Positions 5,605 through 55,751 of a DNA stretch of 64,000 nt are shown piece after piece (position 1 is the stretch's first letter; each line of letters opens with the position of its first letter). The notes beneath the pieces are model-generated. The model saw only the letters and a list, made by a program, of their open reading frames with translations, was not told where the DNA came from and did not search any database. The position numbers and the translations under genes were made by a program. The DNA comes from a virus, in the IMG/VR virus record IMGVR_UViG_3300045988_163663; one strand, 5' to 3'.

Positions 5605-5892
5605 ATGGAAACAAAATTTATTTGGGTAGTTCATTTTGAAGAAGCAGATTTCAACGACTTGGACTGTGCATTCGACAGTTTTGAAATGGCGAAAGAAGCA
5701 GTCCAGACAATTTTTGACAAAGTTTCCGCAGTAAATCCTGCTTGGCAGAATCTGATGCTGGATGATGAAGATATCGAAGATGAATGGGCTGTTTTCAGTT
5801 TTGATTATATCGGAGAAGATGCCAAATTCTTGCTGAAACCAAATGTTGGTATTACAGTTTTTCCTTGTCCTCTCAATTCACTTCCTATTTGA
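5605..5892 (+). CDS. hypothetical acidic protein
   Basis: ORF 95 aa. Confidence 0.4.
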   Translation: METKFIWVVHFEEADFNDLDCAFDSFEMAKEAVQTIFDKVSAVNPAWQNLMLDDEDIEDEWAVFSFDYIGEDAKFLLKPNVGITVFPCPLNSLPI

Positions 5893-5964
5893 AAAATTTG
5901 GGAATCCAGATTTTGGATTCCCATTTTCTTACTTGTCTATTGGAATTAAATGGAAATTCTATTT

Positions 5965-5996
5965 GAGCCTGCCGCGAACCAACGCCGCGGCAGGCA
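5965..5996 (+). repeat. GC-rich hairpin of early intergenic cassette (copy 2)
   Basis: GAGCCTGCCGCGaaccaacgCCGCGGCAGGC then ATTTTAGATTTT. Confidence 0.6.
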
Positions 5997-6115
5997 TTTT
6001 AGATTTTCAGCATTTTCACCAATTTTTTACCCCAAATTTTGTGCAAAATGACAGTTGACTTTTTTCCCGATACCTGCTATACTATTGGTACAAGGTTAAG
6101 GGAGGGAATACCTAA

Positions 6116-6289
6116 TGACTTCTGACGAAAAACTTAAATACTGCATTGAGCAATGGGTCGAAACATTTGATGATTGTGCTTGTTGTCCTCTGATGTTCAA
6201 ATGCCGAGATGATGAAGATATCCAAGGCATTGACTGCATTGAATGTGGTGAAAAAATTATTGATTGGTTAAAGGAGAATGAACTATGAA
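6116..6289 (+). CDS. small Cys-rich protein
   Basis: DDCACCPLMFKC...CIECG; 57 aa. Confidence 0.4.
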
Positions 6290-12031: not shown

Positions 12032-12889
12032 ATGACTAAACTTGATAAGCGTCGAAAGTATTACCTGATTCTGGATTGTGAGACGGCTACCTTGCCGTAT
12101 GCCGCAAAGTTTCCCGCAGATATGAAGAAGAATGTAGCAATCGCCAAGCCGCTGATTTATGATTTGGGATGGCAGATTGTGGATATTCGGGGCAAGGTCT
12201 ACAAGCGTGCGTCCTATCTCATTTCTGAGATTTTCAGTGTTCCCGCCGTTTTCAATACTGCATATTATGCAAGCAAGCGTCCGATTTATCTTGACCGTCT
12301 AAAAGCCGGAGAAATCAAGCTGACGGACTGGAATACGGCTGTCGCAGAACTGATTGAAGATTTGGACGCTGTTGTAGCTGTTGGAGCATATAACAGTATG
12401 TTCGACTTTAAGAAGGCTATTCCATTCACTGACCTGTATGTTTCCAAGCTGTACTCGCCTGATTTCTTTGAATGGGAATCTTATCAGAATGAACGATGTG
12501 AAGCAATCGCCCATGGAAGCAAGCCCCATTTGCAGAAAGAGTTTGAACCTGATATTTTCCGCTTCCATGGCAAGGCGTATCCGCTGTTTGACCTGTGGGG
12601 CTTGTCTTGTGAACATCTGTTGAATAATCCTGACTATAAGCAGATGTGCTATGATAATGAGTGGAGAACGGCAAGCGGCAAATATTATCCGACTAACGCG
12701 GAAAAGGCATTTGCCTATTGTTTCCAGCAGGAAGATTTTGAAGAAGCACATACTGCAATCGAGGACGCAATCATTGAATCCATGCTGTTTGCCCTCATTG
12801 GAGAAAAGACCAAGCACAAGTTTGAGATGGGTATTGAATATTTCCCCTACAAAAAGTTGGGAAGATTTGACAGTGATTGGGAGCTGTAA
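12032..12889 (+). CDS. DEDDh-type 3'-5' exonuclease (DnaQ-like)
   Basis: LILDCETAT (Exo I), YNSMFDF (Exo II), HTAIEDA (Exo III) motifs. Confidence 0.65.
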   Translation: MTKLDKRRKYYLILDCETATLPYAAKFPADMKKNVAIAKPLIYDLGWQIVDIRGKVYKRASYLISEIFSVPAVFNTAYYASKRPIYLDRLKAGEIKLTDWNTAVAELIEDLDAVVAVGAYNSMFDFKKAIPFTDLYVSKLYSPDFFEWESYQNERCEAIAHGSKPHLQKEFEPDIFRFHGKAYPLFDLWGLSCEHLLNNPDYKQMCYDNEWRTASGKYYPTNAEKAFAYCFQQEDFEEAHTAIEDAIIESMLFALIGEKTKHKFEMGIEYFPYKKLGRFDSDWEL

Positions 12890-13117: not shown

Positions 13118-13495
13118 ATGGAAAAGAAGATTACCTATGCTCAGGCTCTGAACACCGTTCTGAACAATGAGAACATCATCCTTGCATCTGATGTGCGGGA
13201 GAAGCTGGAAGCTCTGCTTGCTTCTGTCTCCAAGAAGTCCGGCGAGAGAAAGGAAACTGCACAGCAGGTGGAGAACGCCGAGATGGTGGAGCGGATTTAT
13301 CAGGAGATGGAAGCCAACCGCACCTACTCTATTGCCGAACTGATTAAGGAACTGCCGGTTGTGGCTGACTTCAATGCCAACCATGAGAATGATATGTCCA
13401 CGCAGAGAATGGCGAATCTGCTCAGAACCCTCGTGGAAGATGGCAAGGTTATCAAGACTACTGAAAAGCGGCGTGTCTATTACACCAAGGCATAA
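13118..13495 (+). CDS. hypothetical protein, paralog family X copy 2
   Basis: ...DGKVIKTTEKRRVYYTKA C-terminus. Confidence 0.5.
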   Translation: MEKKITYAQALNTVLNNENIILASDVREKLEALLASVSKKSGERKETAQQVENAEMVERIYQEMEANRTYSIAELIKELPVVADFNANHENDMSTQRMANLLRTLVEDGKVIKTTEKRRVYYTKA

Positions 13496-13587: not shown

Positions 13588-13950
13588 ATGTCAATGACCG
13601 CTGAAAAGTTGGCAAATTCGCTTAAAATTTCCATTGAAGAAGCTAACCAAGTTTTGGAAATGGATAAGCGAATTGATAGGGGCGAAAAGTTGTTTGAGTT
13701 GCCGCCGGAGTTTGAAGCAGGAGCGAAAAAGGCAAGACGTGCTGACCGGAAGAAAGTGGAAAATGTAAAACGGGAACGCAAACCTGATGAAGATAAAAGG
13801 GAGCTAATCCAGTATTTGGAAAGTTCCTTGGAAGATGCCTACCCTGATTTAGATTTGGGTAATATTACCATTACAAATCCAGAACGAGAAATGGAATTTA
13901 TTTACAATGGAATTAAATACCGGTTGACCCTGATGCGTCCAAGGAAATAA
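13588..13950 (+). CDS. hypothetical protein, paralog family Y copy 2
   Basis: Same gene order as 10715. Confidence 0.45.
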   Translation: MSMTAEKLANSLKISIEEANQVLEMDKRIDRGEKLFELPPEFEAGAKKARRADRKKVENVKRERKPDEDKRELIQYLESSLEDAYPDLDLGNITITNPEREMEFIYNGIKYRLTLMRPRK

Positions 13951-15016: not shown

Positions 15017-15586
15017 TTATTTATATCTAAACGGCTACAATCTACCTGCTATATTTCCAATAGGCTAAGATAAGGTAATTAATGCAAATTCCATAGTCTT
15101 TAAATCAGTAGCCGTTAATGCTTTATCTGCCTTTAATTTACTACCATCAATTAATATTTTAAATTCTATATTATCCTCTGGTTTAATTAACTTATAAAAA
15201 TATAGCTTATAATCTTTATTTCTTATATGGCTTTTATGCTCATTCCATCTCTTATTAAAATCAGTAGTACTACCTATATAAATTAACTATCCATTTTTAT
15301 ATACACCATATACTCCACCATCTTTTATTCCTTTATCTTTCCTTATCTATCTCTATTCTTCTTTTTTAATTTTAGCTATCATAGCATCAAATTCTTTCTA
15401 TGTGCCAAACCATCTATAATAATTCTAATTATAAGTCCAATATGGTTTACTCAATTGTTTCTAATCTTCTAAACATATCTCTTTATAATTATTTGGTACT
15501 ATCATAGCTATACGAGGAATACCATATGCCTATTCTCTATACTCTACAAATTTAGATAATGGTTCAAGAGTTTTATATATATTCAT
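15017..15586 (-). CDS. GIY-YIG homing endonuclease (TAG-containing)
   Basis: Minus strand: GVYGVYKNG(Q=TAG)LIYIGSTTDFNKRWNEH; about 8 in-frame TAG and no TAA/TGA over 570 nt of AT-rich DNA. Confidence 0.55.
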
Positions 15587-15789
15587 TAAGTTCTAATAGT
15601 TCTTTATGTTCTTATGAAATCCATAATTTTTCAATTCATATTTTCCTTTCAATTTTTGATTTCGTTTTTCAATTCATTTCTTAAAATATTTCTTTACACC
15701 CATCAACCCTACACTACCACGGGGAAGACACCCGCCACAAAGGAAGTACCCTAAAGCTTGTATGCGAAGCATACAAACTTTTACAAACA

Positions 15790-16175
15790 ATACTTATTTA
15801 CATTTATATTCTTATTGTGCTTGTATCGCTTGTAAAAATCCATTTTCTTGTAAACATTTAAAATTGCTTGTAAAAATTGCTTGTAAAATAAATAAAAATG
15901 CTTGTAATACAAGGAGTAGATAAAAATGCTTGTAAAATTGCTTGTAAAAATCAAGTCTTTCATTTAAAATTTTACAAGCATTTTACAAGCAAAAATTTTT
16001 TACAAGCAAAATTGCTTGTAAAAATAGATTTTTACAAGAACTTTTACAAGCAAAAATTTCCTATCCTTGTAAAACAAGCTTAAAAATTAAAATCCGCCTT
16101 TTTACAAGCATTTTCGTCTTGTATACAAGATTTTTCATCTTGTAAAACCTTCGCTTTACTTGTATTTTTCTTATG
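15790..16175. repeat. iteron array GCTTGTAAAA / TTTTACAAGC (over 20 copies, both orientations)
   Basis: Direct reading of repeated 10-mer with 1-12 nt spacers; not CRISPR-like. Confidence 0.7.
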
Positions 16176-16601
16176 TTCTTCTTCATTTATCATTTCAGGA
16201 TACATTTCTTTAATCTTTTTTAAACGAGCACTTACTGTCTGTTGAGTAATAGCCCCATGTAATCTATCTGAAATCTATTTCTATGTCATACCCTAATTAT
16301 AATATTCAGCAATTTTATCTAATGATAATTCAGCTACTTGTTTAGCTTTGCCTTCTTCTTTCTTTTTCTTATAAGTCTAATCTGTCTTATTAGTCTATGT
16401 AATAAATGGATTTAATATAATTTTAAACATAGCATCATCACTACTATAATCACCAGTCATAGCTACTTCTAATATAGCCATAGCTAATTCTCCCCCTCTA
16501 ACAGGGTCTAATTCATATAGTTCTTTTGCTGATTTAAATGTATCTTCATAAATAATACCACTATTCTTTAAACAAGGAGTATCTTTAAATTCTTTTATCA
16601 T
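16080..16601 (-). CDS. HTH DNA-binding protein (TAG-containing)
   Basis: Minus strand: ...YYN(Q)GMT(Q)K(Q)ISDRLHGAITQQTVSARLKKIK with TAG at conserved Gln of HTH; 3' end overlaps the iterons. Confidence 0.5.
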
Positions 16602-16779
16602 TATTTTGTACCTCCTTGAAATACGTATCAAGAGCCTACATTAAATCAGGCGTTTCTTCATAAACCCAACAATTTAACCATTCATATTGAGGATTCTACA
16701 TTTCAATAATATATTTAAATCCTAACCCTTGAAGATAAATATGGACTTTTAGTGAATAAATAATCTTTGTATTTGGCAT
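16585..16779 (-). CDS. hypothetical small protein (TAG-containing)
   Basis: Minus strand: MPNTKIIYSLKV..., two in-frame TAG. Confidence 0.3.
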
Positions 16780-16788
16780 TTTGTTATA

Positions 16789-16941
16789 TTACTTCTCCTT
16801 ATCCATATATTCTTTAATGGCTTTTCTAATTAATTGCGAAACACTCATATCATTTTCTTTGCAGAATTCATCAATACGTGCCTTCTCTTCATCCTTAACA
16901 CGAGTTGCAATATTATGATAGCCTTCACGTTTACTTGGCAT
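16789..16941 (-). CDS. ribbon-helix-helix (CopG/Arc-like) protein
   Basis: Minus strand: MPSKREGYHNIATRVKDEEKARIDEFCKENDMSVSQLIRKAIKEYM; GGAGA RBS. Confidence 0.5.
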   Translation of the reverse strand: MPSKREGYHNIATRVKDEEKARIDEFCKENDMSVSQLIRKAIKEYMDKEK

Positions 16942-17156
16942 ATATATTCTCCTTTTCTTTTATTAATCTACTATATATAAAAATTAAATCAATATTCTTA
17001 ACCGCGGTGGCCCAAAAAATTTTAAGTAATTTATAACAAGTTTAATTGATATAAGTTGAAATAAAAATATACCTATTGGTTTTATAAATAGTGGAAAAAT
17101 ATAAAAAAATTTGATAAAATATATATAAGATAAAAGATAAGAAAGGAAAATCTTAA

Positions 17157-17624
17157 ATGCCAAATTATCGTGAACAGAATGGCGAAGTTGGTAGCTACAA
17201 CAACTTAAAAGTCTGGGTCCTTAATGGTAATGAGTTCCAAAAGAAGCTACTCACCAAGGGCGGACTTAATGCTACTACCATTTACTGCCTTAAAGAATAT
17301 GACCCCTATCACAAGCTACTGCCCGACTGCATGTACGCCTATATGATTAACCCTAATGACCGCGACAACCTCTACTGCCTTGGCACTATGGGCAATTATG
17401 GAAAAGTGAATTTCAAGAAAAATATCGCAGCGTGCGAAAAGTTCTCACTCGCCCCTAAGCCTGCTCCTAAAACCACATTTGAAGTAGATACTACTAACTA
17501 TGGCGACGCACCTACTCTTACAACCATTGACGCCATTCTTGCCGATATCCAGAAGTGGAATACAAAGATTGATTATGCCGACTATACTAAAACAGTAGAT
17601 AAATACTTGGAGGCCCTTGCATGA
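17157..17624 (+). CDS. hypothetical protein
   Basis: ORF 155 aa after AT-rich promoter motif at 17095. Confidence 0.45.
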   Translation: MPNYREQNGEVGSYNNLKVWVLNGNEFQKKLLTKGGLNATTIYCLKEYDPYHKLLPDCMYAYMINPNDRDNLYCLGTMGNYGKVNFKKNIAACEKFSLAPKPAPKTTFEVDTTNYGDAPTLTTIDAILADIQKWNTKIDYADYTKTVDKYLEALA

Positions 17625-32625: not shown

Positions 32626-34290
32626 ATGACAGATTTGAGGACTCTTATTCCAGAAGAAGAAAAGAACCTGCTGCACGATTATATTAAAGAGTACCTTCAT
32701 TCTGATAATTACTGTACAGTAGATGAAATTAATCATCTTCTGCGGTTTTGGGCTGTCGAAAAGCCCGACCTGTATAAGCTGTTGGGCAACAACCTGATGG
32801 TTAAAGACCATATTGCTTATCAGGCATCTGAAGAGGATTTGATGGATAAGTTCAGTGAAATGTATGAAGAAATTTATAATAATCCTGAATTAGCAAACGT
32901 TAAAAAATTCATTGACTCTTACGAGCAGATTACTAATATTTATTATTCTTGGATGGATGCCACTCTTGATAAGGATGAACGTGTTAATTGTTGTAGCATG
33001 ATTGAGCATTGCCTTGATAGTGAATCTCTCGTAGCCAATAAAAATGTGTATATGTTTGATTGGGGTCGCAAATCTGTTACTATTCGCCGTGGTCCGCATG
33101 CAGATACTTCAAAGCCGCTTGAACTGAAGAGTGATATGAAGTTGATGCGAATGATGGCTAAAATTGTCGATTGGTTTGAGCTGGACAAAGAAGCATTTGA
33201 ACAGTTCCGTATTCTTCATTCGCGTGTTTTGAATGATCGTATGATTAATGCTAATATTACATTGTCTATTCATCCGCTTGACTATCTTACTATGAGTGAC
33301 AATGCTTGTGATTGGGAGAGCTGTATGAACTGGTATCAGGGTGGCGATTATCGTCTTGGTACTGTTGAAATGATGAACTCCCCTGTTATCCTTGAAGCAT
33401 ATGTTGAGTCTGAGCATCCTTATTGTCCTATTGATCGTGATAATAGAACTTGGAGCAATAAGCGTTGGCGGTGTCTTTATATTGTTAATAAGGATATTAT
33501 CACTGAAATCAAACAGTATCCTTATAATAACATTTATCTGCGTGACTATGTGCTGAATAAGATTAAGCAGTTGGCTGAACAGAATATGGGCTGGCATTAT
33601 GATGATAAAATGTATGAGGTTTGGCAGAACCAGAATAATGATACTGATTTTGGTCAGGTTTATATCCGCATGAGGACCGGAGCTATGTATAATGATTATT
33701 ATGATAATCATTATGCTTATATCAATCCAGAAGTCAAAGAAGTAGAAGTTTGTTATTCTGGTGTAGCTGAATGTATGTGTTGCGGCAAAGGCTACGAAGC
33801 TGACCCGAGTGGAAATGTAGATGCATTTGTAGAATGTGATAAAGTCGTATGTGCAACCTGCGAAGGCAAAGTCCAGTGCGATGATTGCGGTGCTTGGATT
33901 GATAGTGAAGATGCTTGGTTTTGTAGTGAAGATGGTGCAACTTATTGTAGTTGGTGTGCAGAGGGCCGCACCCAGGTTTGTAGCTGCTGCGGAGAAACTA
34001 AATGGCTTGATTATGATTTCAAGAAGCAGGCTCTTCCATATATGTTTGAAGTAAAAACTCCTAATGGTAAGCATCGTCGAGATATTGGAAATCCGATTGA
34101 TGTCTGTGATGATTGCTATGAAGATTATTGTTTCGATGATGTACCAAAGGAACCAGACTTGTGGGGAGATTTTCAATATATTGATGTTGACAAGGTAGAT
34201 AAGAAGGTATGGGAGCCATTTCTGTCCCTTGAAAGAATTGCTGATGCCAAGGTGCGGCTAAAGGCAACTTACCCTGATGATTATGTTTAG
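32626..34290 (+). CDS. large HPLDY/SCMNW-family protein with C-terminal zinc-ribbons (paralog A)
   Basis: LSIHPLDYLTMSDNACDWESCMNWYQGGDYRLGTVEMMNSP core shared with 39720 and 43959; CMCCG..C..C repeats. Confidence 0.55.
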   Translation: MTDLRTLIPEEEKNLLHDYIKEYLHSDNYCTVDEINHLLRFWAVEKPDLYKLLGNNLMVKDHIAYQASEEDLMDKFSEMYEEIYNNPELANVKKFIDSYEQITNIYYSWMDATLDKDERVNCCSMIEHCLDSESLVANKNVYMFDWGRKSVTIRRGPHADTSKPLELKSDMKLMRMMAKIVDWFELDKEAFEQFRILHSRVLNDRMINANITLSIHPLDYLTMSDNACDWESCMNWYQGGDYRLGTVEMMNSPVILEAYVESEHPYCPIDRDNRTWSNKRWRCLYIVNKDIITEIKQYPYNNIYLRDYVLNKIKQLAEQNMGWHYDDKMYEVWQNQNNDTDFGQVYIRMRTGAMYNDYYDNHYAYINPEVKEVEVCYSGVAECMCCGKGYEADPSGNVDAFVECDKVVCATCEGKVQCDDCGAWIDSEDAWFCSEDGATYCSWCAEGRTQVCSCCGETKWLDYDFKKQALPYMFEVKTPNGKHRRDIGNPIDVCDDCYEDYCFDDVPKEPDLWGDFQYIDVDKVDKKVWEPFLSLERIADAKVRLKATYPDDYV

Positions 34291-34369
34291 TTTAAATTCT
34301 TGCCAAAATTGAATACTCGAAAATTTATAAAAAATTTGATATAATATATATAGAAAGGATGGGAGAGAT

Positions 34370-39719: not shown

Positions 39720-41363
39720 ATGACACCTTATGAAGCATTGACTGCACAAGATAAGGAATATATTACTGAATATATTGAAACATGGGGTGGCGTTAATTCC
39801 CCAATTAAACTCAAAGCATCTCTTGATTATATCCTTCGAGAATGGAATAAGAGTAAACAAACTCTATTTAATATTTTTGGCGAAAAGTTAATGTTGGAGA
39901 AGGAAATCCAGGTTGAAGATGGAGATAACAAAAAAGTAAGAGAAGTTAATGAGTATCTTTATAGCACTAATCCTGGTATCAATTTTATTACAAATCTTCG
40001 TAGATTATTTGAATCTGATACTACTTATTTTGAAAATACTTATGCAACAAGGCATGCAATATATAATTTAATTCAAGCTTATCAACTTTTTACTAATAGA
40101 GTTGTTAAAGGATTTACTTATCACAATAAAGATGGTAAAATAGTTAAAGTTCCAGAAGGAGCTAAGGTAATGAAAGTTCTTCAGAAAATGGCTAAAGAAT
40201 TTGATTTACCTGATTTTGAAATTTTTCGCAATCATATTTCACGTATTACTGAAGTACGTAAATCTAAAATTAAATTTACTTTGTCTATTCATCCCTTGGA
40301 TTATATGACTATGAGCGATAATGCAAATTGTTGGGAAAGTTGCATGAACTGGACTCAAGGACCGGGAAGTTATCGTGCTGGTACTATTGAAATGATGAAT
40401 AGTCCATTAGTTGTTGTAGCATATATTACTACTAAACCTTATTATCCAGCAAATACTTCTATTGAATGGACTTCCAAAAGTTGGAGAGAATTGATTATTG
40501 TTCATCCAAAAGCTATTTGTTCTGTAAAATCTTATCCTTATTACAATATTGCATTTGATAAAGCTCTTGTAAATTGGCTTGCTAATTTGGTTGAAGAAAA
40601 AACCGAATAGCGTTATAATAGAAAAAAGCCACAAGAAAGTTTAGATAGCTGTTCTTATATCGAAGCTTGGCAAGATAAAGAAGATAAGGATAATCGTTTC
40701 CTGTTGGATTTTGAAACAAATGAAATGTATAATGATTTTGGTAATACAGAAAATTATGGAATTTTTTCAATTAATCCACCAGACAATAAATATCGTACAT
40801 TCGCAATTAATTATTCTGGTTTAATGACTTGTATGTGTTGCGGCGAAAATGGTTATTGGTCTGATGACACTGAAATGGTAGTTTGTGAAGACTGTGATCC
40901 ACCTACTTATTGTTATTGTTGTGGCGAACGAGTTAATACAAATGATGCAATTGAAGTAGATGGTGAATGGGTTTGCGAAGATTGTTATAATGATTTACAT
41001 AGATGTTTATGCTGTGAGGATGCTCATTTTGATGAAGATTTCACTACTGTATTTGTTGGACATATTGACAATCAAACTATTAATATTGATTATGATGAGC
41101 ATTATATTTGTAATGAATGTCTTGCCAATAAAGAATATTTAAAGTATCTAGGAGATACTGATATTAGAGCTGAAACAATTCGATTGGATGGCGGTCCTTA
41201 TTATGGTAGGGTGGCTCTCTTAATTGAAGAAGATGATTTAAATGTAGAGGCTAAAAAGATAATTTCTAATGATCCTTATTCTACTATAATTACTGATTAT
41301 ACTTATGCTATTCGTCGTTATCCTGAGCGTTTTTATAGTTACAATAAGTCAATTGCGATTTAA
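39720..41363 (+). CDS. large HPLDY/SCMNW-family protein with zinc-ribbons (paralog B, TAG-containing)
   Basis: FTLSIHPLDYMTMSDNANCWESCMNWTQG; TAG at 40608 is in frame with downstream ORF 40704. Confidence 0.55.
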
Positions 41364-42879: not shown

Positions 42880-43878
42880 ATGGGTAAAAAAGTTTTAGTT
42901 CCTGATTTTACTGAAAATTGTAGAGGGCTTTTGGAAGGGCTATTTAAGATTAGTGAAGTAGGTCTTTTGAAAGCTCTTGGTGATTTTGTATCTAATAAAT
43001 ATTCTAATGTAGAAATTACAGAAGATTATGTATATGCTGAAGGTAATATTCCTGTTATGCTTATTGCACATGTAGATACTGTATTTAGACAGCCAATTCG
43101 TCAATTTACTTATAATGAGAAAAGAGCAGTTTATAAAGGCAAGGAAGGTCTTGGAGCAGACGATAGAGCAGGTGTTTTTGCGATTATTCAGATTTTACGC
43201 AAAAAGTATAGACCTTATGTTCTTTTTACAACAGATGAAGAAATGGGCGGCTATGGGGCACATGTATTTGTTGAAGCACATCCAGTAGCTCCAAATATTA
43301 AGTACATGATTGAGCTTGATAGAGCTGGTGAAAGAGATTGTGTCTTTTACGAGTGTGAAAATTTTACATTTGTAGATTATGTTGAAAGTTTTGGTTTTAG
43401 GCAAGCATTAGGCTCATTCACAGATATTAGTATTATTATGCCTGAATGGGAAATTGCCGGAGTAAATTTATCAGTTGGCTATCATCATGAACATACTCAA
43501 AATGAAGATTTACATATTAGAACATTGTATAATACAATTAATAAAGTATGTAAAATGCTCGATGATATTGAAAATGCAGATAAATATAAGTTTATTCCCA
43601 GTAAAGAATACCTTCAGTGGATTACATTAACTAATAAATATCATATGCCTTATGATTTTGATGATGATAAACTTCTTAATTGTAGTTTTTGTAATCAGTT
43701 GTATTATGAGTGGGAAGATTTCCCTCTTGATATTGATGGAGTAAAGGTTCATGTATGTCCTGAATGCTTGGCTCTTGACCCTAATATTCATCAATGTGAA
43801 AAATGTTATAATTTATTTTATTCAAATAATATGAAAGAAAGAGTATGTAATAAATGTCGAGTCCCTGTTGTAATTTAA
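42880..43878 (+). CDS. M42/M28-like metallopeptidase with C-terminal zinc-ribbons
   Basis: IAHVDTVF, GADDRAGV, TTDEEMGG metal-binding motifs; C-terminal CSFCN...CPEC...CEKC...CNKC. Confidence 0.5.
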   Translation: MGKKVLVPDFTENCRGLLEGLFKISEVGLLKALGDFVSNKYSNVEITEDYVYAEGNIPVMLIAHVDTVFRQPIRQFTYNEKRAVYKGKEGLGADDRAGVFAIIQILRKKYRPYVLFTTDEEMGGYGAHVFVEAHPVAPNIKYMIELDRAGERDCVFYECENFTFVDYVESFGFRQALGSFTDISIIMPEWEIAGVNLSVGYHHEHTQNEDLHIRTLYNTINKVCKMLDDIENADKYKFIPSKEYLQWITLTNKYHMPYDFDDDKLLNCSFCNQLYYEWEDFPLDIDGVKVHVCPECLALDPNIHQCEKCYNLFYSNNMKERVCNKCRVPVVI

Positions 43879-43958
43879 ATGAAATTAAAGAACAAGTAAA
43901 GAAGGTTATTGCCTATTCATAGGGGCTGGATATTAACCTTTTAAATATTGATAAATTA

Positions 43959-45280
43959 ATGAGCGATTGGGAAGAAAATAAATGTAAATTTTATAGTAGA
44001 CTTCCCGGCAATAAATTAATTTATCAAAGTCATACGCCTATTACAATGTCTATTTCAGAAGATGATAAAAAGGCTGAATTAGATTGTTTTATTGATAATA
44101 TTCGTTGGCGTTATAACTTATTTGAGTTAAAAAATTTTGTTGAAAATAATAGAGAAAATTTTTATAATAATATTTTAAGCGAAGATTATCCAATGGATAA
44201 TGGAACTATTATTCCAAAAGGAATGAAAATAATTAAAGCATTTAAATATTTTGTAGAAGATAAAGAAACTCTTACTGAAATACAAGATAAGGCAAGTATG
44301 CTTATTCAAAATACAAAAATTAATGGATATTTTTGTATGTCAGTTCATCCATTGGATTATCTTAGCCTAAGTGAAAACACACATAATTGGCGGTCATGCC
44401 ATGCACTTGATGGAGAATATCGTGCTGGTAATTTATCTTATATGACTGATAATTGTACAATTATATGTTATATTAAGAGCGAACATGACGCAGTTCTGCC
44501 CAGATTTCCAGATGATGTGCCGTGGGCAGATAAGAAGTGGCGTATGCTTCTTCATGTATCTAATGATGATACTATGATTATTTCAGGTCGTCACTATCCT
44601 TATGAAAGTAAAGGCTTACAAGATTTTGCACTTGAATTGTATGAAACATTTTTTGGGCAAGGATATAGTTTTACTGATTGGTGTCATGAAAAATATAATA
44701 CATTTACAGTAAATGATAAGATTATTTCTAATGATTGTCGTTTATTGCCTACTGGATATATTATGGCCCCAGATATTAAGATTATTATTGATCCAAAAAA
44801 TCCTTTACATTATAATGATCCTCTTCATTCTACTGTATATGATTATTGGTTTAGTATTGCTTATAGTGAACCTTATTGGCATGAAGAAGGCATTCCGCAA
44901 GATAAATTAATTCTTCCAAGAACTCGTACTACTACTAAAGTTAATATAGGACATGATGTAAAATGTTGTATTTGTGGTAAAAATGATTGTGTTTTAACAG
45001 ATACAATGCTTTGTATTGATTGCGAACTTAAATATGGTACAGAAGAAACAGAAGATTTTACTTTCTGTAGAGAATGTGGTAGACGTATCTATATTCCTGA
45101 AGCAATATCATTAGATGATGATGATGGTTATGTATGTCGCAATTGCGGAGACAATTATTAGATATGTGATAATTGTAATATGTATTATGATAAAAAAGAT
45201 TTAATTTATGATGAAGAAAACAATGCTTACTATTGTGAAGCTTGTTATGATGAAATTTTATTTGATAGGGAGAATGAATA
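43959..45280 (+). CDS. HPLDY-family protein with zinc-ribbons (paralog C)
   Basis: FCMSVHPLDYLSLSENTHNWRSCHALDGEYRAGNL; TAG at 45159 read through to TAA 45278. Confidence 0.5.
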
Positions 45281-45589
45281 ATGGCAAAAGGTAGTATTGC
45301 TAAAGATGCTGTTGTAGAAAAAATTGCAGAAGCATTTGGTGAAGATTTCCTTGGATCTTATGATAAAAAGTATTATGTGCGAGCTAAAGAAAATGGACAA
45401 TATATTCAGATTGCAATTAGTCTAACTTGTCCAAAAACGCCTGTTGAATCTTTTGGTTCTATGGATTTTGGTAATAATGAACTTAATTTTGAAGATGGAG
45501 CAACAATTCAGCCTGCGAAAAAGGCTACAGAAATTAGTCCAGAAGAAGAAGAAAATTTAAAAGCTTTAATTGAAAAGCTTGGTTTGTAA
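45281..45589 (+). CDS. hypothetical protein
   Basis: ORF 102 aa followed by hairpin terminator AGAGAAAGTCAAattGACTTTCTCT. Confidence 0.45.
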   Translation: MAKGSIAKDAVVEKIAEAFGEDFLGSYDKKYYVRAKENGQYIQIAISLTCPKTPVESFGSMDFGNNELNFEDGATIQPAKKATEISPEEEENLKALIEKLGL

Positions 45590-49050: not shown

Positions 49051-49199
49051 GCTCTCGTAGCTCAATTGGTCAGAGCCGGCGACTTATCCAAAATTAGTTT
49101 AAATGGTAAAATAGTTTATGCGCAAGAAAGATGTAAGTTCAAATCTAACATTTTGGGCCAAATCGCCAGATGTGGGTTCAAATCCCGACGGGAGCACCA
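49051..49199 (+). tRNA. tRNA with about 80-nt insertion in anticodon loop
   Basis: GCTCTCG-TA-GCTCaattggtcaGAGC, anticodon stem GGCGA(49078)...TCGCC(49163), T arm and acceptor CGGGAGC-A-CCA. Confidence 0.5.
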
Positions 49200-52894: not shown

Positions 52895-53027
52895 GCGCCA
52901 GTGGCCAAGTGGTATGGCACCTGCCTTTGTGGAATTGATGTAAGTAGCATTTTAATGTATTGGTTCAAATCCAATATTCCGCACCATAAGCAGGGCAACG
53001 CGGGTTCGATCCCCGCCTGGCGCACCA
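52895..53027 (+). tRNA. tRNA-Gln-like (UUG) with about 58-nt insertion in anticodon loop
   Basis: GCGCCAG...CTGGCGC-A-CCA; D arm GCCAAGTGGTATGGC as in tRNA-Gln; CCTGC(52920)+CTTTG ... AA+GCAGG(52990) gives loop CTTTGAA after removing insert. Confidence 0.5.
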
Positions 53028-55677: not shown

Positions 55678-55751
55678 GGGGACATAGTTTATGGTAGGAA
55701 AACGTTGAATTTAATTCAAAGTCGAGGGTGCGATTCCCTCTGGCTCCACCA
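55678..55751 (+). tRNA. tRNA with anticodon loop ATTTAAT (UUA), shortened 15-nt anticodon arm
   Basis: GGGGACA-TA-GTTT..AAAC, TTGA-ATTTAAT-TCAA, T arm GAGGG-TGCGATT-CCCTC, TGGCTCC-A-CCA; one acceptor mismatch. Confidence 0.35.

Follow-up and report, generated by a model that had tools for sequence, protein, structure and literature searches.

What does a dense cluster of short DNA repeats do at the end of a gene in a phage that has reassigned a stop codon? The question is raised by positions 15790–16175 of a 64,000-nucleotide stretch (hereafter the window) of the IMG/VR virus record IMGVR_UViG_3300045988_163663, which comes from an uncultured gut phage with a tRNA cluster and tail-fibre genes. 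An initial annotation described there a bidirectional array of repeats overlapping the 3′ end of a TAG-recoded helix-turn-helix (HTH) gene, and proposed either replication-origin iterons or a multi-site operator. We know of almost no experimentally defined cis elements in large uncultured gut phages with reassigned stop codons. Here we describe a family-wide, uncharacterised protein–array unit with natural specificity variants and with arrays embedded in coding sequence, itself a variation on the known theme of iterons and cis-encoded binders. Strong comparative evidence indicates that the array is the cognate binding-site set of the HTH protein encoded over it, and we tentatively favour an origin-like role for the unit.

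A dense array of short sites in both orientations

The hexamer CTTGTA/TACAAG was present 22 times within 408 bp (14 plus-strand and 8 minus-strand copies), compared with 34 times in the other 63.6 kb and 56 times in the 64 kb window as a whole; given this background rate, the Poisson probability of the cluster is ~2 × 10−36, which confirms the dense bidirectional array first noticed at 15790–16175. Aligned sites gave WWWnTGCTTGTAAAA, that is, (A/T)3-n-T-G-CTTGTA-A-A-A, with TGCTTGTAAAA as the site consensus. The count of over 20 copies given in the initial annotation was right for this 6-bp core and too high for the 10-mer GCTTGTAAAA, which occurred exactly 11 times (6 plus, 5 minus, all inside 15828–16109) and, with up to one mismatch, 23 times in the window, 16 of them within 15779–16147. 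None of 100 shuffles reached 23 such matches. Centre-to-centre spacing was wider-ranging than the 12–22 nt first reported, being irregular at 6–37 nt (median 17), and one extra step of 63 nt separates the array from a core in a terminal hairpin. Outside the array, the window holds motif copies at chance level only and we therefore regard the array as a local cis element and not as part of a regulon.

Five cores (16103, 16118, 16124, 16139 and 16159) lie inside the 3′ end of the HTH open reading frame (ORF), which contains five in-frame TAGs, so that the annotated overlap with a recoded gene stands. These five cores encode part of the protein tail, ...KNTSKAKVLQDEKSCIQDENACKKADFNF, and homologues preserve both the frame and the HTH domain across the TAG positions. 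Most of the array in the window is non-coding.

Several other descriptions of the array were considered and set aside. A CRISPR (clustered regularly interspaced short palindromic repeats) array consists of regular direct repeats of ~24–48 bp with unique spacers of similar length; here the units are of 6–11 bp, irregularly spaced, in both orientations and partly inside an ORF, and we concur with the earlier exclusion. A weak peak of helical phasing at 10.25 bp (vector strength 0.50, n = 22) was unconvincing after multiple-period testing. Large-scale dyad symmetry (63-nt arms with 75% complementarity; RNA fold z −8.7) was rejected as a defining feature, as relatives have mostly direct repeats. 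A sigma-factor decoy, suggested by the resemblance of the motifs to −35 elements, was set aside for lack of a region 2 and of a −10 partner. One perfect inverted pair of sites within the array was scored as a terminator-like hairpin in both directions (DNA fold −10.5 kcal/mol, z −5.2). Rfam returned only tRNAs at gathering thresholds and, over the array at E ≤ 1, only microRNA-like hairpin noise.

Several short metagenomic contigs, including the Logan contigs L050 and L056, stop inside the array; the repeats thus seem to break assemblies, and automated surveys would consequently under-sample the array.

The array and the HTH gene are conserved as one unit

We compared about 20 loci encoding homologues of the HTH protein and located the densest hexamer cluster within each whole locus. 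In about 16 of them this cluster fell at the end of the HTH domain, and the linkage between gene and array was kept from 95% down to 34% protein identity. Absence of the repeat from related genomes, which the initial annotation had named as the observation that would speak against its proposal, was not what we found: the array was present in all close and in most distant relatives.

Homologues 69–95% identical to the window protein were encoded in the same order of ribbon-helix-helix (RHH), DUF5659-like and HTH genes, with 12–23 CTTGTA cores at the same place. One close relative, IMG/VR 3300029858_000040, has ~85% genome identity to the window, rising to 96–100% across 15800–17200 and falling to ~55% over the endonuclease gene beyond the array; another lies on a 103.5-kb ENA contig. 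When six loci of close relatives were aligned, the cores and a central block (CTTGTAAAATGCTTGTAAAATTTTAAATGAAAGA) were invariant, and whole sites had been gained or lost as indels.

Among distant homologues (34–56% identity; loci of 1.4–12.6 kb, drawn from IMG/VR, JGI and metagenome-assembled genome (MAG) contigs), the densest hexamer cluster began at the end of the HTH domain in L052, L058–L066, L070 and L073, with L069 in weak agreement. The motif itself varied by lineage, being TGGAAA(C) in some, GGTTGTA in others (more than 30 copies over 700 bp in L061) and TTTGTA elsewhere (up to 31 copies).

This variation follows the recognition helix of the encoded protein. The helix of the window protein, ITQQTVSARL, accompanies the core CTTGTA; VSQQTIAKRM accompanies GGTTGTA, and L(S/T)QQ(N/M/T/I)VSYR accompanies TTTGTA. 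The helices MQPPNVSKKV, VQPPA(V/I)SK and MSAGNVSKKL are all found with TGGAAA(C). Thus, QQT(V/I)S or QQ(N/M/I)VS pairs with CTTGTA, GGTTGTA or TTTGTA, and PP(N/A)(V/I)S or AGNVS with TGGAAA(C). Because repeat and recognition helix covary, which is our strongest evidence, and because gene and array are linked, we infer that the HTH protein reads the repeat. The HTH protein, one of two plausible binders put forward initially, is accordingly the better candidate by comparison of sequences. The other, the RHH protein, is not conserved with the array: in relatives with the array, including L058–L060, where it is replaced, the first gene of the operon encodes another small HTH protein or is missing. 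It is probably the local operon regulator and not the array binder. The conserved upstream companion of the HTH gene, in all clades examined, is instead the DUF5659-like gene.

A helical domain, an HTH and a disordered tail

The HTH protein comprises a DUF6291-like helical N-terminal domain (residues ~19–91), an HTH of LuxR/sigma-r4 type (~92–133) and a disordered tail ending in DFNF. AlphaFold, given an alignment of 43 sequences, modelled residues 1–145 confidently (predicted local distance difference test above 90), with the tail disordered from ~150. The likeness to Pfam DUF6291 (PF19808), a family without assigned function, lies in the N-terminal helical domain; the window protein scores 17.7 bits, under the curated gathering cut-off of 27.2, and 10 of 10 close homologues likewise gave sub-threshold matches. 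In the wider family, 28–29 of 36–43 members matched DUF6291 in this domain, with a best E value of 9 × 10−8.

A profile search recovered 406 clusters at 50% identity (208 with E ≤ 1 × 10−10), all of them metagenomic; for the most part they come from phages with recoded stop codons, on contigs that reach ~200 kb. None of the 406 carried a functional name beyond generic regulator or sigma labels. Only four MAG contigs were found in a scan of genome contigs, and these look like binned phage DNA. The public phages of INPHARED contained no homologue detectable by megablast of 12–20.5 kb or by tblastn of two family proteins, and no paper in the library searched mentioned DUF6291 or DUF5659.

Nothing similar to the N-terminal domain was found in the PDB. 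BFVD fold matches to it comprised DUF6291 proteins and a single protein bearing the annotation ‘replisome organizer’ (probability 0.85, E ~0.5). A link between DUF6291 and replisome-organiser families was pursued with profile searches of Pfam and PDB using the N-terminal domain only, which gave nothing else, and was dropped; a further profile search of a large protein database added fragments only.

The HTH profile also matched proteins of 340–820 residues (P0019, P0070, P0119, P0130 and P0151) built of 5–12 tandem HTH copies of ~50 residues; such proteins may read tandem repeats in DNA. Among solved structures, the nearest by sequence is a protein with two HTHs that binds CRISPR repeats (2lvs).

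An AT-rich tract and a hairpin follow the array

At every locus inspected, an AT-rich tract, often tandemly repeated, came next after the array, and beyond it lay one or more hairpins with G+C stems. The counterpart of the tract of the window in relatives consists of tandem hexamers of the GTAAAT/GATAAT type. The hairpin beyond it folds in the window both as RNA (−15.2 kcal/mol, z −5.1) and as DNA (z −4.7 and −5.7), and within the window clade it shows compensatory changes (TATGC/GCATA to TACGC/GCGTA, and AAAG/CTTT to AGAG/CTCT).

The loop region of this hairpin reads GCGAAGC on the plus strand (15764–15770) and fits the DNA mini-hairpin motif GCGNAGC. In the window clade and in L049/54/55, L058, L060 (two copies), L062 and L064, the antisense strand relative to the genes carries this heptamer just after the array, and C-GAA-G (CGAAG) variants were present in L052 and L059. 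Reading the hairpin as a UUCG RNA tetraloop was rejected, as the sense strand gives GCUUCGC and not C(UUCG)G, except in L058; a DNA mini-hairpin fits better because the exact known motif, GCGAAGC, lies on the other strand. Mini-hairpin DNA of the GCGNAGC/CCGAAGG kind has been reported at the complementary-strand origin of G4, at ssiA of RSF1010 and at the hairpin promoters of N4, and CCGAAGG in ssiA is recognised and bound by the primase RepB′ (PMC13037366).

Arrays double as coding sequence

In the TGGAAA lineages and in many other members, the array is translated as part of the ORF, as are the AT-rich tract and the G+C-rich segment that follows the hairpin, and the ORF ends in a conserved C-terminus of F-x-F type (KFDF, KFEF, GFNF or FRF); the window protein reaches its DFNF after just five sites. 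Among the family representatives of at least 160 residues, 53 of 102 end in aromatic-x-aromatic, and 50 of 102 contain runs of (V/D)N dipeptides, which are the translation of the tandem GTAAAT/GATAAT hexamers. The G+C-rich segment encodes, in these read-through relatives, a stretch rich in S, P and G that precedes the terminal F-x-F. The arrays thus encode a variable linker ending in a conserved F-x-F. The motif occurs in all three frames and both orientations in ORF-embedded arrays, which places the constraint at the level of the DNA, with no conserved peptide repeat.

These observations suggest a broader proposal, which we regard as doubtful at present: that DUF6291–HTH proteins (~400 clusters) act in origin binding or genome maintenance, with arrays of sites in the 3′ part of their own genes. 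Under the same proposal, and no less speculatively, gain or loss of sites would change both the cis element and the length of a disordered tether to a C-terminal F-x-F docking peptide. If true, evolution would have tied site copy number directly to protein architecture, and to a far greater extreme than in lambda O.

An origin-like element as the favoured reading

We hypothesized that the array and the HTH gene together form an origin-of-replication-like element with its cognate binder, resembling lambda O/ori or RSF1010 oriV. The layout, with iterons, AT-rich tract and mini-hairpin in or just after the gene of the binder, favours such an element over a promoter operator. In the sequence of events that we envisage, dimers or oligomers of the HTH protein would read TGCTTGTAAAA through the recognition helix and coat ~400 bp, at about one site per one to two helical turns, in a large nucleoprotein complex. 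Stress could then be released at the adjacent AT-rich tract, 15786–15817, and the unwound plus strand may fold into the GCGAAGC mini-hairpin (15753–15781), a possible priming or loading signal. The disordered tail with its terminal F-x-F might recruit a partner such as a helicase, a primase or another phage factor. Binding, unwinding, priming, partner recruitment and origin activity are thus what we infer from the array, its link to the gene family, the helix covariation, the DNA-level constraint and the conserved order of array, AT-rich tract and hairpin, which are established by the comparisons above. Two weaker hints point the same way: the operon opens with an RHH gene whose product weakly matches plasmid copy-control families, as in cop-rep-ori modules, and one fold match of the N-terminal domain is the ‘replisome organizer’ mentioned above.

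A number of observations weigh against an origin. The HTH protein has no detectable homology to known initiators or replisome organisers, and no helicase, primase, polymerase or loader was recognised in the genes examined, which were the ten ORFs scanned against Pfam in the 9 kb to the left, the neighbours of the module on either side and, between 26 and 63 kb, the largest ORFs. The sole P-loop (Walker-A) protein in the window, encoded by a 181-aa ORF at 29.5 kb, is kinase-like by eye only and lay outside the family scans. GC skew, suggested at the outset as a check for an origin signature, showed no switch within the 64 kb; it stays positive to the left and right of the module, and the local dip only follows the minus-strand genes. 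The 22–35 sites per locus compare with 4–8 in typical phage and plasmid origins and are nearer to centromere or maintenance arrays. The AT-rich tract includes the least stable 30 bp of the locus, but in instability these rank no higher than the 97th percentile across the 64 kb, in an AT-rich genome and a module of 27% G+C. The heptamer GCGAAGC has six copies in the window and is not significant alone; the argument from it consequently rests on its recurrent position. The HTH gene carries five TAGs inside an otherwise TAG-free early region, which implies that full-length protein may appear only after the code switch, a poor fit to an early initiator; in several relatives, the HTH gene is without TAG. 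Finally, the linkage has exceptions: L071 is weak, and the L074–L076 branch, in which a short gene ends in a terminator, is without an adjacent array and has a separate TTGCTAA array 2.8 kb away.

In L075 (IMG/VR 3300006319_000006), that separate array consists of ~14 bidirectional TTGCTAA/TTAGCAA sites at 5800–6120, 2.8 kb downstream of the HTH gene; it may be a relocated cognate array or belong to another protein.

The two alternatives of the initial annotation, origin iterons or a multi-site operator, have therefore been narrowed in part: protein-binding sites are supported by the comparison and the layout is more origin-like than promoter-like, whereas a skew switch and homology to an initiator were lacking.

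Likenesses to known origins

In lambda ori, a palindrome follows the AT-rich tract. The order found here is alike: the gene of the binder contains the sites or has them at its end, an AT-rich tract comes next and a palindrome follows. Gene O has the iterons and AT-rich tract of lambda ori in its central part, and additional iterons lengthen the O protein (PMC7466680). Similarly, the iteron DNA in this family encodes a linker, so that iteron number alters protein length, and in both cases the C-terminal part is thought to recruit a partner. In contrast to lambda, the HTH protein resembles O in neither sequence nor fold, its gene is not followed by one for a P-like loader, and the sites are 22–35 in number, short (6–11 bp) and of mixed orientation, as against 4–6 iterons of 19 bp.

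The oriV of the IncQ plasmid RSF1010 has 3.5 direct iterons of 20 bp and dedicated RepA, RepB and RepC proteins; G+C-rich and A+T-rich segments come after the iterons, and the ssiA and ssiB hairpins after these. It shares with our locus repeated sites, an AT-rich segment and a hairpin with a C-GAA-G mini-hairpin loop; GCGAAGC lies here on the strand antisense to the genes, with a putative role in priming, and no RepA/B/C homologue is present.

Short iterons immediately downstream of an initiator gene are also a feature of SaPI ori, of the RepA iterons of ICP1-PLE and of orf56–orf904 of pRN1; in SaPIs, the origin lies just 3′ of the initiator gene. The initiators of these elements bear helicase or primase domains, unlike the 173-aa HTH protein, which has only the helical domain and the HTH. 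A report on pRN1 describes a cop-rep-ori module with a small RHH regulator at the head of the operon (PMC4234260). The RHH protein of our locus differs in not being conserved in the family.

Alternative readings of the unit

A centromere-like, maintenance or genome-organising site would be an unlikely alternative, in which the protein forms a segrosome-like filament and its C-terminal F-x-F captures a motor or a host structure. Such a site might, equally improbably, serve segregation or positioning of the phage genome, for example in a carrier or pseudolysogenic state. Centromeres of types Ib, II and III (parC of R1 and pB171, parH of TP228, tubC) have 10–35 short repeats, spaced by roughly one helical turn and covered by a small dimeric adaptor that binds DNA and contacts the partner through a flexible terminal peptide. 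The dense short-repeat array and the small DNA-binding protein with a flexible terminal peptide resemble these systems, although in form only. Site number (22, and 31–35 in relatives) and density (8–21 bp spacing) are nearer to arrays of the parC/parH/sopC or Epstein–Barr virus FR type, direct and inverted orientations are mixed, and adaptor proteins typically end, after a disordered linker, in a short hydrophobic motif that is conserved. In some members, the HTH weakly matches ParB, KorB, KorA or RepB-partition HTH families, and an RHH gene is present in the operon. However, the module contains no ParA-, ParM- or TubZ-like gene, and a Walker-A scan of window ORFs of at least 120 aa, with Pfam and PHROGs searches on part of the ORFs, recognised none; the Walker-A scan is blind to actin-like ParM and tubulin-like TubZ, which have no Walker A. 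Known centromeres lie upstream, at the operon promoter, and not inside the 3′ end of the binder gene; they have no counterpart of the AT-rich tract and mini-hairpin, whose conservation after every array is left unexplained, and there is no evidence of episomal persistence of these phages.

We consider it similarly improbable that the array is a multi-site operator or roadblock, acting in autoregulation, blocking read-through into the downstream gene or insulating the minus-strand module from converging early genes. The LuxR/sigma-r4-type fold is dominated by transcription regulators, some relatives are labelled ‘predicted transcriptional regulator’ or ‘specialized sigma subunit’ by their sources, the core TTGTAA resembles a −35 hexamer, and the array lies between two co-directional genes with terminator-like palindromes. 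Yet a promoter and terminator scan showed no enrichment, with 20 promoter-like sites against 18.9 expected. There are no sites in the divergent promoter region 16941–17157 and none beyond chance elsewhere in the window; 20–35 of them would be extravagant for an operator. In many relatives, moreover, the array is inside coding sequence and the downstream gene is variable or absent, and the conserved AT-rich tract and hairpin would remain unexplained.

A packaging (pac) site read by a small-terminase-like HTH protein, as in cosB/Nu1 of lambda or pac sites inside terS genes, seems very unlikely to us. Overlap of the binder gene with its own sites would suit it, as would the late expression with which a TAG-rich gene is compatible; however, matches to small terminases are limited to the HTH, which lies mid-protein (residues 92–133, after a distinct N-terminal domain) and not at the N-terminus. 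No large terminase adjoins the module or was recognised among the large window ORFs scanned, the module sits among small early genes, and the array lies at no consistent distance from the ends of the long contigs of relatives.

That the repeats have no DNA-binding role, and are peptide repeats of a low-complexity tail or RNA structure of a 3′ untranslated region, is hardly credible even though relatives translate through the array and its RNA folds far better than shuffled sequence (z −8.7), since the motif occupies all three frames and both orientations with no peptide repeat kept, coding sequence takes up only the smaller part of the window array, relatives do not share the orientation pattern or, with it, any long-range RNA or DNA fold, no Rfam family matches, and the covariation of helix and motif would go unexplained.

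Genomic setting of the unit

The coordinates of the unit and its neighbours are collected in Table 1. The array sits in a minus-strand island of 27% G+C, transcribed in the order RHH gene, DUF5659-like gene, HTH gene, array and GIY-YIG endonuclease gene.

Table 1 Features of the array locus (window coordinates)
Feature	Position	Strand	Remarks
GIY-YIG endonuclease gene	15017–15634	−	Free-standing; TTG start at 15634 probable; variable slot downstream of array
G+C-rich segment with TTGTGGCGGG (minus strand)	15697–15752		After hairpin; common to relatives
Hairpin, 13-bp stem, from palindromic iteron pair	15753–15781		Relatives show compensatory changes
Bidirectional array, 22 cores, consensus TGCTTGTAAAA	15757–16164		Cores kept in relatives; spacers and site number vary
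AT-rich tract, minus strand AATAAGAATATAAATGTAAATAAG	15786–15817		Immediately after array in gene direction; candidate unwinding element
Perfect 12-bp inverted iteron pair, TTTTTACAAGCA-AAAT-TGCTTGTAAAAA	15997–16024		Within array
HTH gene (predicted array binder), 173 aa	16080–16601	−	Five in-frame TAG, TAA stop; last ~90 nt (16080–16170) carry five cores
DUF5659-like gene, 64 aa	16585–16779	−	Two in-frame TAG; overlaps HTH gene start by 17 nt
RHH (CopG/Arc-like) gene, 50 aa	16789–16941	−	First gene of minus-strand operon; Pfam RHH_1, 8.6 × 10−7

The RHH protein also matches the NCBIfam ORF56 copy-control family below threshold and, weakly, RepB-RCR_reg. Between its gene and the plus-strand gene at 17157, the divergent intergenic region is 100% identical to the relative L045 over 17000–17100, and 16985–17100 carries an isolated G+C-rich palindrome-like island, AACCGCGGTGGCCC, amid AT-rich DNA, a candidate operator for the RHH protein.

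The slot beyond the array varies in content and does not belong to the conserved unit. The endonuclease gene that occupies it here has ~55% identity to L045, against 96–100% across the array and HTH gene; in L060, the slot also holds a GIY-YIG gene and, in other relatives, unrelated small ORFs. The 96–100% identity of the array/HTH block to a relative that is otherwise ~85% identical could reflect recent exchange around a homing-endonuclease hotspot.

No in-frame TAG was found in ~60 plus-strand ORFs of 1–25 kb, while many genes from 25 kb onwards need TAG as sense (up to 8 per gene). TAG is densest in the minus-strand island, with 5 in the 173 codons of the HTH gene and, in the endonuclease gene, 10 from the TTG start at 15634 or 9 in the 189 codons of the ATG-15586 ORF. 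Judged from codon content, the layout looks like an early standard-code region with an embedded recoded island. Rfam called three tRNAs unlisted by ARAGORN, at 49051–49196 (146 nt, which may hold an intron), 52895–52983 and 55678–55748 (+). The last has the anticodon loop AU-UUA-AU; its anticodon, apparently UUA, would decode UAA and, through wobble, UAG, so that this tRNA is a candidate suppressor in the stop-codon recoding.

A DnaQ-like 3′–5′ exonuclease, recognised by eye from DxE...HxAxxD motifs (phrog_20187, no Pfam match), is encoded at 12032–12889 (+); together with two small conserved genes (13118–13495 and 13588–13950, the latter encoding a protein that ends ...LTLMRPRK), it is syntenic with the array module across distant relatives, including L062. 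Further along the window, three large paralogues of 475–572 aa (32626–34344, 39720–41363 and 43854–45281, all +) share a central S(I/V)HPLDY(L)(T/S)(M/L)S(D/E)N...W(E/R)SC motif, and their C-termini are Cys-rich, with numerous CxxC pairs; their sole family match is phrog_18912, to which no function is assigned.

Implications

The unit provides a concrete, testable protein–DNA pair, a 173-aa protein and an 11-bp site, which comes with natural specificity variants (CTTGTA, GGTTGTA, TTTGTA and TGGAAAC) and a predicted recognition helix. Should the unit prove to be an origin, it would offer replicons or shuttle vectors for these phages and their hosts, an anchor for replication-timing analyses and a function for DUF6291. 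A centromere-like or maintenance role would instead suggest that these phages live as episomes or in a carrier state. Either way, dense arrays of DNA sites can hide in seemingly low-complexity coding tails that gene callers and annotators would dismiss.

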